Below, piece after piece: positions 4,385 to 8,147 of a DNA stretch of 30,999 nucleotides; position 1 is the stretch's first letter; the number at the start of each line of letters is the position of its first letter. A program made the translations under genes and the position numbers. The stretch is from Dehalococcoidia bacterium (lineage in GTDB: Bacteria; Chloroflexota; Dehalococcoidia; GIF9; AB-539-J10). The stretch is taken from contig JAWOGR010000105.1 in the NCBI GenBank assembly GCA_046496625.1, positions 1 to 30,999 on the forward strand, in the 5' to 3' direction. The notes under the pieces were generated by a model that ran no database searches, was not told the DNA's origin, and was given only the letters and a program-made list of their open reading frames with translations.

Positions 4385-4995
4385 TGGAAACAGTATCGCA
4401 AGTCATAATCCCTACGGTGACCGAGAGCAGTGCTCGCGGTGAGCGTATCTTCGACATATACTCGCTTCTGCTCAGGGAGAGAATCGTCTTCCTGGGCACT
4501 CCCATCAACGATCAGATAGCCAATCTGATCATCGCTCAGCTTCTCTACCTGGAGAGAGAGGATCCCGAGAAGGACATAAATCTGTATGTCCATTGTCCCG
4601 GTGGCATTATCAGCGCGGGCCTGGCTATCTACGACACAATGCAGATTCTGCGCTGCCCTGTCTCGACGATCTGTGTCGGACTGGCGGCCAGCATGGGGAC
4701 CGTGCTCCTCTGTGCGGGAACGAAAGGCAAGAGGTACGCTCTGCCCAACTCGACTATACATCTGCACCAGGCAGTCGGTGGTGCTCAAGGGCAGGCGGCG
4801 GACATCGAGATCGCCGCCAGGGAGATCATGAGAATCCAGGAGGTGATACGCAATATCATAGCCAATCACACCGGTCAGCCGGTAGACAAGATCGCCCACG
4901 ATGTCGATAGGGACTTCTACCTGAACGCTGAACAGGCGGTCGAGTACGGCATCGTCGATGAGATACTCAAGAAACCGCCCAAGAAGGGCTCATGA
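4381..4995 (+). CDS. clpP: ATP-dependent Clp protease proteolytic subunit
   Basis: [22 protein letters not shown] (Ser), LHQ (His), DRDFYL (Asp); follows tig. Confidence 0.97.
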
Positions 4996-5081
4996 CGCGC
5001 CTTGCTCCTGCTGCCCGCCGGACCGGCCTGTCCTGGCGGAGTCTACTCAGATAAGGGTGTTCTGCGAGCGGAGGCGGTAGC

Positions 5082-5249
5082 ATGATAGTCGGAGTGCTGG
5101 ACTATATGGGAGCGATCGCGTTGGCTTATGCCGCGGGAGAACCGTACGGCGGCCTGGGCAGAGGCGGACTGATCACAGTGATAATAGTCTCAGTGATTGC
5201 CATCGTCACCTTCTGGTGGATATTCCGCGAGACCGGAAAGCGCGAGTAG
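5082..5249 (+). CDS. Small membrane protein, 55 aa, below the ORF-track cutoff
   Basis: GGAGG at 5070-5074, ATG 5082; MIVGVLDYMGAIALAYAAGEPYGGLGRGGLITVIIVSVIAIVTFWWIFRETGKRE*, one clear TM segment followed by a charged tail. Confidence 0.6.
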   Translation: MIVGVLDYMGAIALAYAAGEPYGGLGRGGLITVIIVSVIAIVTFWWIFRETGKRE

Positions 5250-5307
5250 ACCACAGGCTGATACGGCAGATCAACCCTCCCTGCCTGAAACGGCTCTCGT
5301 TTACCGA

Positions 5308-5419
5308 CTGACAGTTGATATCTGACTGCTGACAGCCGGCCGCTGAAGACTGACTGCTTCCTGCTGATGGCTGACTGTGGACCGCTGATGGCTGATAACT
5401 GATTACAGACCGCTGACAT
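5308..5419. repeat. Tandem heptamer array, 16 units, consensus CTGAYWG
   Basis: ctgacag ttgatat ctgactg ctgacag ccggccg ctgaaga ctgactg cttcctg ctgatgg ctgactg tggaccg ctgatgg ctgataa ctgatta cagaccg ctgacat, exact 7-nt register. Confidence 0.85.
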
Positions 5420-5424
5420 CCCTG

Positions 5425-5478
5425 TGTAACTGTGAGTCCCGACCTATCAGGGCGAAGAATCTCCACTCGGCTCAGGGC
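5425..5478 (-). repeat. Degenerate palindromic repeat at the 3' end of the PHP gene
   Basis: Minus strand GCCCTGAGCCGAGTGGAGATTCTTCGCCCTGATAGGTCGGGACTCACAGTTAC resembles the GTCA(C/T)(C/T)CTGAGC...GAAGAATCT / AGATTCTTCG...CTCAGAATGAC class of small repeats. Confidence 0.45.
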
Positions 5479-6143
5479 GAACTATCCGACGAGTGGCCCA
5501 GCACCGTCTTCCTTATCCTGGCCCATGTGCTGGAGAGGTGAGCGGTGTAGCCGGACTTCCGTCCGAAGACCGTGCCTCTGGACAGAGATTCGAGGAAGTC
5601 CCGGGGCCCGTCGAACTCCTCCATCTCCACGTATGCCCGGCCGATTTCCTGCGCGGTATGGGCATCGCTGCCGGCGCTGGCAGCCTTGCCTTGTTCGAGG
5701 GCCAGTTCCCGTGCTCTTGCAATGTCGCGGGAGAGCGCGGTGCGTGAGTTGAAGGCCTCGATGATATCCACCCGGGATAGAACATCCGGCGAGGTCAGCC
5801 TGGTGGTGTTAGTGAAGGGTGGCCTGCCGAACGGATGGGGAATGGCGACCAGGCCGCCCTGCGTCCTGATGCGCGATATCGTCTCCTGAGGAGACAACCC
5901 CGGTGGGACTCTCTCACTAAGAAAGAGCCCCATTATCTCGCCGGCTGGCGTCTGGACCTCCTCGGCCACGATCACCTTGAACGGTGCCATTTCCCTCAGC
6001 TTCATGGCACCATCAATCGTATTGTGGTCGGCCACCGCAACACAGCCTATGCCTATCTTCAAGCAGCGCTCGACTATTTCATCCAGAGATGTGAAACAGT
6101 CTATGGAGTAGCATGTGTGGATGTGCAAATCTGCTCTTATCAA
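5472..6143 (-). CDS. PHP-domain metal-dependent phosphoesterase
   Basis: DLHIHT, DHN, EEV, PHP and GSDAH metal-binding motifs; extended -10 TGGTATAAT on the minus strand at 6177-6185. Confidence 0.9.
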   Translation of the reverse strand: MIRADLHIHTCYSIDCFTSLDEIVERCLKIGIGCVAVADHNTIDGAMKLREMAPFKVIVAEEVQTPAGEIMGLFLSERVPPGLSPQETISRIRTQGGLVAIPHPFGRPPFTNTTRLTSPDVLSRVDIIEAFNSRTALSRDIARARELALEQGKAASAGSDAHTAQEIGRAYVEMEEFDGPRDFLESLSRGTVFGRKSGYTAHLSSTWARIRKTVLGHSSDSSP

Positions 6144-6282: not shown

Positions 6283-6843
6283 TTAGCCGGCCTTTTCCTG
6301 GTACTCGCCGGTGCGGGTGTTGACTTTGATGACGTCGCCTGTGCTTATGAAGAGGGGAACCTGGACGGTTGCCCCCGTTTCCAGTTTGGCAGCCTTGGTG
6401 CCCGCTGTAGCCCTGTCCCCCTTGAATCCGGGATCTGTCTCCGTAACCCGAAGCTCCACGGAAATGGGCATCTCCACAGCCACCGTCTCTCCTTTGGCGG
6501 TCAGGACCTCCAGCACCATCCCCTCTTTGAGATAGGCTACGCCTTCTCCTATCTGGACAGCGGTCAAGACGAACTGGTCGTAGCTCTCGTTGTCCATGAA
6601 ATTGTAGAGGTCGCCGTCGTTGTAGAGGTACTGGACGGGACGGTGCTCCAGGAAAACCGGCGTGACTTTGTCCCCCGACTGGAGATTGCGCTCAGCGACG
6701 TTCCCCGTGCGGGCATCGCGGAGCCTCAGCTTAATCACAGGTTGCCTCTGCTGCATCTTGACATGCTGGTATTCGATGACTGTATAAATGCCGCCATCCA
6801 TCTCTATGGTGGCTCCCTTTCTCAGTTCTCCGGCATCGATCAT
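6283..6843 (-). CDS. efp: Elongation factor P with atypical loop (KMQQR)
   Basis: ELRKGATIEMDG, QYLYNDGDLYNFMDNESYDQF, TDPGFKGDRA, KLETGATVQVPLFI and KVNTRTGEY are EF-P motifs. Confidence 0.95.
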   Translation of the reverse strand: MIDAGELRKGATIEMDGGIYTVIEYQHVKMQQRQPVIKLRLRDARTGNVAERNLQSGDKVTPVFLEHRPVQYLYNDGDLYNFMDNESYDQFVLTAVQIGEGVAYLKEGMVLEVLTAKGETVAVEMPISVELRVTETDPGFKGDRATAGTKAAKLETGATVQVPLFISTGDVIKVNTRTGEYQEKAG

Positions 6844-6859
6844 GTGGTATCCTCCCTGT

Positions 6860-6965
6860 TTAGCATTCAGCGCTCGGTATTCAGTTGTCAGCCATCAGCC
6901 GGGTGCATCCGACCTCGTTGCCCGCCGTAATCCAAAGGTCGCTGAGCGCTGACAGCTACAGGCTA
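6860..6965. repeat. Inverted pair of heptamer arrays between the Xaa-Pro peptidase gene and efp
   Basis: TCAG-type units at 6860, 6867, 6874, 6881, 6888, 6895 and CTGA-type units at 6942, 6949, 6956, 6963; tcagcgctc (6867-6875) is the exact reverse complement of gagcgctga (6944-6952). Confidence 0.75.
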
Positions 6966-8068
6966 TGCTTTTGTGCTCTCGTGAGAACTCTCGCCTTTCC
7001 GTCCTCCAGGACTACGATGTCCTCGATCCTGACACCGCCTTCTCCCGGCAGGTAGATTCCGGGCTCAATGGTGAAGACCATGTCGTTCGAGAGAGTGCCG
7101 TTGGATGACGGGCCTACAGTGGGCAGTTCATGAACTGCCAGCCCGACGCCGTGTCCCAAACCGTGCCCGAAGTTGTCCCCGTAGCCGGCCTGTTCAATGA
7201 CGCTGCGGGCCAGTCGGTCCACCTCTGCACCCTCCATGCCCGACCGCACTCCCTCGATGGCAGCGATCTGCGCCCTGAGCACTATATCATAGATCTTCTG
7301 CATGTTGTCGCCTGCTCCACCCAGGAACAGGGTGCGGGTGAGATCGCTGCAGTAGCCGCCGATCCTTGCTCCCATATCGATGACCACCGGCTGGCCGGTG
7401 CCCAACTTCTTGTCTGTCGGGCGGGCGTGTGGTAGGGCCGCGTTCGGACCCGAGGCAACGATGATCTCGAAAGCTACTCCCTCACTCCCTCCCTGGCGAA
7501 GGAGCTTCTCTATCTCCCATGCCGCCTGCTTCTCCGTCATATCGGGGTGTATCAGCCCCTTCGCTTCTTCGAGGGCGGCATCTCCTAGCTGAACAGCCTT
7601 AGTGATGAGCGCAAGTTCTTCAGGCTCTTTGACGGCGCGCAGACCCTCCACCAGGCCGTTGGCAGGAACGAATTCCAGGCCGATCTGTGCGGTCTTCATT
7701 GCTTGATTGAGCTTTTGATGACTATCGAATGATACGAAGTCCGCTTCGAATCCCAGTTTCTGCAGTCCCAGGTCGGACACAAGCCCCGGAAACCAATCGC
7801 CCAACTCCCTTTTGGTCTGAACGATGGTGAAGTCCGGTGACTCCGCCCTGGCCTGCTCGACGTAGCGGAAGTCGGTGGTCATAACGGCCTCTTTCGCCGA
7901 GACGAGCAGCCATCCTGAGGAGCCGGTGAATCCTGAAATGTAGCGACGGTTTTCCGGCTGGCATACAAGGATCCCATCGAGTTCCCTGTCCGCCATGGAC
8001 GTTCGCAGCTTCTGCAGCCGGCTCATCCCCGTCTTCCCTTTCGGACTGCTAACCGTTGTTCCTTTCAT
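6956..8068 (-). CDS. M24-family Xaa-Pro aminopeptidase/dipeptidase (start at 8068 or 8026)
   Basis: Creatinase-like N-domain; IDMG, YCSDLTRT, GHGLGHGVGLAVHE, FTIEPGIY and GVRIED metal-ligand motifs; directly upstream of efp, a common pairing. Confidence 0.93.
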   Translation of the reverse strand: MKGTTVSSPKGKTGMSRLQKLRTSMADRELDGILVCQPENRRYISGFTGSSGWLLVSAKEAVMTTDFRYVEQARAESPDFTIVQTKRELGDWFPGLVSDLGLQKLGFEADFVSFDSHQKLNQAMKTAQIGLEFVPANGLVEGLRAVKEPEELALITKAVQLGDAALEEAKGLIHPDMTEKQAAWEIEKLLRQGGSEGVAFEIIVASGPNAALPHARPTDKKLGTGQPVVIDMGARIGGYCSDLTRTLFLGGAGDNMQKIYDIVLRAQIAAIEGVRSGMEGAEVDRLARSVIEQAGYGDNFGHGLGHGVGLAVHELPTVGPSSNGTLSNDMVFTIEPGIYLPGEGGVRIEDIVVLEDGKARVLTRAQKHSL

Positions 8069-8147
8069 CTTGCATATCCTTCCTTTTCTTGAGACAGACT
8101 GTGGGTGTGGCATATGCCACGCCCGTGCGAATCATACCACAGGCGGG

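Follow-up and report, generated by a model that had tools for sequence, protein, structure and literature searches.

The window, by which we mean the whole stretch of 30,999 nucleotides analyzed here, comes from an uncultured bacterium and carries a gene (efp) for translation elongation factor P (EF-P), which sets ribosomes stalled at runs of proline going again, on the minus strand at 6283..6843. This open reading frame encodes a protein of 186 amino acids from an ATG start codon, and a Shine-Dalgarno sequence, GGAGG, can be read on the same strand at 6851-6855, 7 nt 5' of that ATG. The product scores 219.9 bits against TIGR00038, the NCBIfam equivalog model for EF-P (cut-off 185.8), and its three domains, EFP_N, EFP, and Elong-fact-P_C (PF08207, PF01132, and PF09285), all lie above their cut-offs; two EfpL/YeiP models gave scores far below theirs (154.1 versus a cut-off of 216, and 142.8 versus a cut-off of 264). 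The AlphaFold model of the protein has the L-shaped, tRNA-like fold of EF-P, with Foldseek TM values of 0.91 to the Thermus thermophilus structure 1UEB and 0.84 to the ribosome-bound structures 4V6A and 6ENJ. The gene is thus a bona fide, full-length efp. The source assembly is a metagenome-assembled genome (MAG) of 1.13 Mb that is 79% complete, and its close database relatives are labelled Dehalococcoidia or Dehalococcoidales MAGs, mostly derived from sediment.

Two co-oriented genes flank efp on the minus strand. Directly upstream lies pepP (6956..8113), encoding an Xaa-Pro aminopeptidase of family M24 with Peptidase_M24 and Creatinase_N domains, and directly downstream lies a gene for a PHP-domain phosphoesterase (5472..6143; PHP and PHP_C domains). 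The complete gene order is mgtE, pepP, efp, and PHP, converging on clpP, tig, and aspS. The pepP-efp-PHP order recurs in 13 relatives, and PHP follows efp in relatives with either of the two loop types described below.

The tip loop and its predicted structure

The beta3-beta4 loop of EF-P is encoded at 6739-6759 (minus strand) by codons K29-M30-Q31-Q32-R33-Q34-P35, the first base of codon n being at 6843-3(n-1), and in context it reads Y-Q-H-V-K-M-Q-Q-R-Q-P-V. The motif KMQQRQP noticed in the earlier note therefore corresponds exactly to codons 29-35 of a full-length EF-P. Canonical EF-Ps carry at the tip of this loop either Lys34, which is beta-lysylated or aminopentanolylated, or Arg32, which is rhamnosylated by EarP; YmfI likewise acts on the Lys tip. 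In ungapped phmmer alignments to EF-Ps of solved structure, KPGKG of Clostridium thermocellum and Staphylococcus aureus and KLGRG of T. thermophilus lie opposite KMQQR, which puts Gln32 (codon CAG, 6748..6750, minus strand) in the same column as the modified Lys34 of Escherichia coli and Arg32 of Thermus and Pseudomonas, and the invariant Arg33 (codon AGG, 6745..6747, minus strand) one residue past the tip. The product thus has Gln32 where a Lys or Arg tip would be expected. Both this alignment column and the AlphaFold turn, which is formed by Q31-Q32, bear out the proposal that Gln32 rather than Arg33 occupies the tip.

Structure predictions for the present protein and for a sister EF-P with the loop KMGRGSA (protein P0122), both built from the same 84-sequence alignment, differ in this region. 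In the Gln-type model (pLDDT 91), strand beta3 spans residues 18-30 and beta4 residues 33-43, leaving a two-residue turn at 31-32, while in the sister model (pLDDT 90) beta3 spans 18-28 and beta4 36-43, leaving seven unpaired residues, 29-35, in the canonical seven-residue loop. Q31 and Q32 stand at the apex of the Gln-type model, M30 and R33 form the closing cross-strand pair, and R33 opens the returning strand, directly under the Q31-Q32 turn; the confidence of this model, given per ten-residue block, is 87 for residues 31-40. From the contrast between the two models, loss of both glycines is predicted to close the loop up as a tight hairpin, and the Gln-type loop would accordingly be the more rigid of the two.

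Gln tips are rare. Among 1166 EF-Ps, the tip residue was K in 81%, R in 15%, and Q in 0.6% (Volkwein et al. 2019, PMC6544042); the same study accepts A, M, N, or Q at the tip as rare EF-P variants, and Gln is again listed among rare tip residues by Sieber et al. 2024 (PMC11611912). The present loop, with Met30 at position -2, Gln32 at the tip, and no known modifier, belongs to the Gln-tip (M-x-Q) class of Volkwein et al. 2019. The same class contains YP_002248247 of Thermodesulfovibrio yellowstonii, with QHVKMQQRAP, for whose genome neither EpmA nor EarP is listed (PMC6544042). That protein shares the K-M-Q-Q-R-x-P loop, with Met at -2 and a Gln tip, but belongs to another phylum, and its overall identity is only about 40%, whereas the present clade groups with the Arg type of its own order. 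The Gln-tip loop class, including the same motif in Thermodesulfovibrio, is therefore already catalogued, and none of its members is functionally characterized; 2026 reviews (PMC12856214, PMC13602936) describe no functional work on Gln-tip EF-Ps. The possibility allowed for in the earlier note, that this is the ordinary, well-characterized EF-P type of its clade, consequently stands in part: the loop is a fixed type of the clade and Gln tips have been tabulated (PMC6544042, PMC11611912), but the type is not well characterized.

Conservation and origin of the Gln-type loop

KMQQRQP was found in 120 of the 120 best clusters (76-92% identity) of a search of 5.8 billion proteins, in all 24 genomes of the genus first sampled, and in 31 named Dehalococcoidia MAGs. 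A survey of 119 genomes from 20 genera of one Dehalococcoidales family placed the Gln-type loop in genera g1 (that of the source genome), g16, g19, g20, g22, g25, g28, and g29, and thus, counting one g18 genome, in at least nine genera of the family; the Arg-type loop, K-[MIVL]-G-R-G-S-A, occurs in eleven other genera and in the sister families of the order. The recurrence of the same seven residues across clusters, genomes, and genera argues against either chance or sequencing error. Within the Gln-type clade, conservation of the loop columns is 1.0 (0.97 for Q34) against a whole-protein mean of 0.84, the sole deviation being one Q34K, while overall EF-P identity falls to 65%. An invariant loop in a protein that otherwise diverges to this extent over at least nine genera points to strong purifying selection and not to decay.

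No intermediates between the Gln-type and Arg-type loops were found among more than 200 sequences. The positions fixed differently in the two types are only 28 (V/I), 31-36 (QQRQPV in the Gln type versus GRGSAQ in the Arg type), 53, and 56. Asn53 is invariant in the Gln type and absent from Arg-type relatives, which have S, A, or V, and Ser56 also co-varies with loop type; apart from the loop block and position 28, the two types differ in a fixed manner at N53 and S56 only (N53-S56, 6676-6687 of the window). Three further observations concern loops in the same family and order. The g18 genome mentioned above encodes KMQQRKP (G109:C16:211537-212091) in an efp that groups with those of Gln-type genera, and the remaining g18 genomes in which efp was recovered are of the Arg type; the KMQQRKP genome could owe its loop to gene transfer inside the family, or could have been wrongly binned or classified. 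A third loop type, K-M-K-[RK]-T-A-L, which lacks one residue relative to the canonical loop, occurs in other Dehalococcoidales MAGs. One Arg-type genome of the family has a second efp of the Lys type (KPGKGRA, 35% identical; G110:C1:356-901), which is probably the horizontally acquired Lys-type gene reported for Dehalococcoidaceae.

In a tree of 138 EF-Ps from which the loop columns were left out, the genus (itself a starred clade) and the Arg-type EF-Ps of the same order come out as sister groups (SH-aLRT 88). The family-level EF-P tree can be explained by a single change of loop type; support is 92 for its main Gln-type clade, which has 37 rows, and only 70 for a single origin overall. As read from these sequence phylogenies, the Gln-type loop is shown to be derived among Arg-type (KMGRGSA) relatives. 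A compensated frameshift converting GRGSAQ into QQRQPV was considered as a route and rejected: gapped nucleotide alignments of 34 Arg-type with 10 Gln-type loop DNAs had a mean score of -2.0, no better than nulls obtained with synonymously recoded (-1.55) or order-shuffled (-1.08) sequences.

Related loops also occur well beyond this order. Among the best 150 representatives at 50% identity, 11 have x-[QA]-Q-R-x-[PA] loops, including, judging by source names, KMQQRAP in SAR202 (cluster P0140) and RCQQRKP and RTAQRKP in Patescibacteria; the Q-R dipeptide is the only part common to all 11. An AU test rejects a single clade uniting all x-Q-R loops with the genus (p 0.024, for a group named after the tree had been seen) but does not reject one for the narrower M-Q-Q-R set (p 0.44). 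Repeated origin is therefore likely for the broad x-Q-R class, and the exact M-Q-Q-R motif may have arisen either once or several times.

Copy number, modification enzymes, and polyproline load

The whole source assembly holds one efp, and so does each of the 52 species genomes of the genus, 18 of which are of high quality. This contradicts the suggestion of the earlier note that the gene might be one of two paralogues, and as the sole efp in 52/52 genomes it has to provide any EF-P function that is present in these cells.

Genes for the known modification enzymes were sought at three levels. The source genome gave no match for EarP, EpmB, or deoxyhypusine-synthase-like (DHS-like) genes. No EpmA match exceeded the cut-off in the 52 genomes of the genus, where the matches to the genX model are lysyl-tRNA synthetases (LysRS) of about 490 amino acids that score below it; the best match in the source genome, on contig C106, resembled a truncated EpmA but proved to be a LysRS of which the end of the contig leaves only the C-terminal half. 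EarP (PF10093) had no match in the 52 genomes, a weak negative since none of 14 control genomes has EarP either. DHS-like genes were found in none of the 119 family genomes, while control genomes gave matches. The protein is thus neither of the Lys type modified by EpmA and EpmB (there is no P32, no K34, and no epmA or epmB was found in these searches) nor of the Arg type modified by EarP (the tip is Gln, and PF10093 was without a match, again a weak negative), and its loop, M-Q-Q-R-Q-P, is not the P-G-K-G-P loop. As far as EpmA, EpmB, EarP, and DHS-like genes go, these searches are in keeping with the idea that this EF-P is independent of modification.

The genes downstream of efp were considered as a possible loop-specific modification system. 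In Arg-type relatives the genes after PHP encode a formyltransferase-fold protein, a HAD phosphatase, and a PfkB kinase, and the formyltransferase-like and HAD genes are kept with PHP in four of the five other Gln-type genomes of the genus that were examined. In the window, around 4995-5472, PHP alone is kept before the convergent clpP, and a search of the rest of the 79%-complete source genome found neither the formyltransferase-like gene nor the HAD gene. The candidate was rejected as loop-specific, the PHP/formyltransferase-like/HAD/PfkB cluster being present with both loop types.

The polyproline load was compared, using a crude set of open reading frames, between the source genome and 400 kb of each of two Arg-type relatives. 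Pro-Pro (PP) occurs 2.47 times per 1000 amino acids in the source genome (observed/expected 1.04), 2.72 times in the Arg-type relative from the same family (1.02), and 2.64 times in that from a sister family (1.23). The source genome has 46 PPP motifs against 37 expected, and PP counts in reciprocal-best orthologue pairs (Gln type versus Arg type) are 51 versus 51 and 73 versus 77, such that no genome-wide depletion of PP or PPP is seen in the source genome relative to these two. IleS (1033 amino acids, plus strand, at about 22.9-26.1 kb of the window) keeps the Pro-Pro beside its HIGH region in EGPPSVNG, and FtsH of the source genome keeps GPPG. Taken together, the unchanged load, the IleS GPP, and the FtsH GPPG give no indication that the proteome is moving away from polyproline.

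Valyl-tRNA synthetase (ValRS) presents a different picture. Adjacent prolines occupy one particular site of ValRS in 99.8% of more than 3,000 genomes, with exceptions reading PLP in Planctomycetaceae and one cyanobacterium, and their loss has been read as a trace of past EF-P perturbation (Brewer and Wagner 2024, PMC11388002). The sole ValRS of the source genome, encoded outside the window (contig C16:4102-6723), reads MPLPNVTG at this site and not the near-universal MPPPNVTG. Across 44 scored genomes of genus g1 the motif is PPP in 13, PLP in 14, PPT in 16, and PPS in 1; the triplet is thus lost in 31, and in the 14 with PLP adjacent prolines are lost altogether. Other Gln-type genera have PPP in 10 genomes and PPA in 4, and Arg-type genomes of the family have PPP in 33, PPA in 4, and PPL in 2 (for a third family genome with PPL the EF-P loop was not recorded). 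Over the family, PPP is therefore kept in 23/58 Gln-type and 33/39 Arg-type genomes, which are related and not independent, and in a large sister family the DNA pattern PPP-N-[VIM]-T-G is present in 67/77 genomes. Among genomes with the K-M-K-[RK]-T-A-L loop, five of seven keep PPP in ValRS and two have a divergent HPPTNITG.

PLP was seen only together with the Gln loop, and changes from triplet to doublet with both loop types. As a signature specific to the Gln type, loss of the ValRS PPP is only partly upheld, for Arg-type genera g21, g24, and g26 have lost the triplet too (PPA, PPL), and the early-branching Gln-type genera g16, g19, g20, and g22 keep it, which indicates that the change of loop long preceded that of ValRS. 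PLP itself looks like a single event, as it is linked to other changes in ValRS. The erosion of ValRS hints at limited PPP rescue throughout the family, and perhaps to a greater degree in g1; given that the genomes are not independent, it is not proof of a weaker Gln loop.

Functional interpretation of the Gln-type EF-P

We interpret the gene as encoding an unmodified, still functional housekeeping EF-P in which a stiffened Gln-Gln turn and the adjacent Arg replace the modified tip, a reading that we hold to be somewhat probable. The ancestral, glycine-flanked Arg loop K-M-G-R-G-S-A-Q would have been replaced as a block by K-M-Q-Q-R-Q-P-V. With both glycines lost and Pro35 gained, a flexible loop of seven residues may have become a rigid, fully paired beta-hairpin, and Arg33 is a candidate functional counterpart of the ancestral Arg32. 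The amides of the glutamines and the guanidinium group of the arginine could then supply contacts made elsewhere by beta-lysyl-Lys, rhamnosyl-Arg, or aminopentanolyl-Lys. Such a factor would carry no modification at all, would be active on polyproline stalls, and would work by a logic resembling that of the PGKGP EF-Ps of Actinobacteria and of the Arg33 loop of EfpL.

Several known EF-Ps can be set beside the present one. The closest backbone is that of the sister Dehalococcoidales KMGRGSA EF-Ps, which are 57-65% identical, of the same length and three-domain fold, and share the pepP-efp-PHP synteny; they differ from the present type in six consecutive residues, by which both glycines are lost and the Arg is moved by one position, and in a predicted loop of seven unpaired residues in place of a two-residue turn. 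T. thermophilus EF-P (KLGRGGA; 1UEB, 4V6A), the structural match at TM 0.91, is an Arg-type factor without EarP. EfpL/YeiP (8S8U; PMC11611912) is unmodified, and its functional Arg, at residue 33, lies as far from the N-terminus as the present Arg33 when residues are counted; however, EfpL is an accessory paralogue with an extended loop, SPTARGAAT, and a conserved Pro at -3 from the Arg, whereas the present protein has an unextended loop, is the product of the sole efp, and scores below the EfpL cut-offs. The Actinobacteria PGKGP EF-P (6S8Z; Pinheiro 2020), as far as it is summarized in PMC12856214, shares the principle of a loop stiffened by its own sequence for which modification is unneeded, but it has a Lys tip and two flanking prolines where the present protein has a Gln-Gln tip, an Arg next to it, and one Pro.

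Against an unmodified, functional factor stands the inactivity of E. coli EF-P once its Lys34 is replaced by Gln (K34Q; PMC6544042), from which a Gln tip alone is insufficient in another loop context; furthermore, the rigid hairpin rests on two AlphaFold models, the ValRS PPP is missing from 31/44 scored genomes of the genus, and the sequence is also compatible with a modification of some other kind. Several of these points fit an alternative that we regard as rather unlikely, namely that the loop change weakened or re-specialized EF-P, which would still bind the ribosome but rescue PPP more poorly, or act on another set of motifs, while the proteome adapts. The inactivity of E. coli K34Q agrees with it, as do the PLP of the source genome in a position of 99.8% conservation (PMC11388002), the distribution of ValRS motifs in the genus (PLP 14, PPT 16, PPS 1, and PPP 13 of 44), the restriction of PLP to Gln-type genomes, and the lower retention of PPP in these (23/58 versus 33/39). 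The counted genomes are, however, related and not independent, the PLP change has the appearance of a single event, the Arg-type g21, g24, and g26 have lost the triplet as well while the Gln-type g16, g19, g20, and g22 retain it, and the proteome shows neither depletion of PP or PPP nor loss of the IleS GPP and FtsH GPPG.

We consider it less likely still that the loop is modified by an enzyme not yet tied to EF-P, for example on Arg33, or by N5-methylation or another change of Gln31 or Gln32. The known modification classes leave out about half of bacterial EF-P types (PMC13602936), Q-R is kept without exception in the loops of the x-Q-R class, and a conserved PHP gene follows efp, often with formyltransferase-fold, HAD, and PfkB genes after it; yet that cluster is common to both loop types and is cut to PHP alone here, no gene turned up whose presence goes specifically with the Gln loop, and the nearest precedents lacking a Lys tip or EarP, namely EfpL, are unmodified (PMC11611912). 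That the gene is a specialized second, EfpL-like paralogue or is decaying hardly seems credible, and this idea was rejected: beyond the unusual loop nothing speaks for it, and it would have to be reconciled with one efp in each of 52/52 genomes, EfpL scores of 154 versus 216 and 143 versus 264, a loop without extension, and an open frame whose protein and loop are both under purifying selection.

More broadly, the Q-R loop, as a rigid turn of two Gln residues with an Arg behind it, might represent a third sequence-encoded, modification-free solution for EF-P that has arisen more than once (in the Dehalococcoidales family, SAR202, Thermodesulfovibrio, and Patescibacteria), with a shifted spectrum of stall motifs leaving its trace in the change of ValRS from PPP to PLP, as in Planctomycetaceae; this broader proposal is put forward tentatively, and we think it rather doubtful as a whole.

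The sister proteins, 57-65% identical and differing essentially in one block of six residues, offer a clean natural comparison, and the contrast of GRGSAQ with QQRQPV bears on the ability of a Gln/Arg hairpin to stand in for a modified tip. The Gln-tipped type is among the roughly half of bacterial EF-P types without a known activation route, and modification-free EF-Ps are of practical interest for engineered translation. As the type occurs in abundant uncultured SAR202 and in Patescibacteria, it also bears on how runs of proline are translated in a sizeable share of environmental bacteria.
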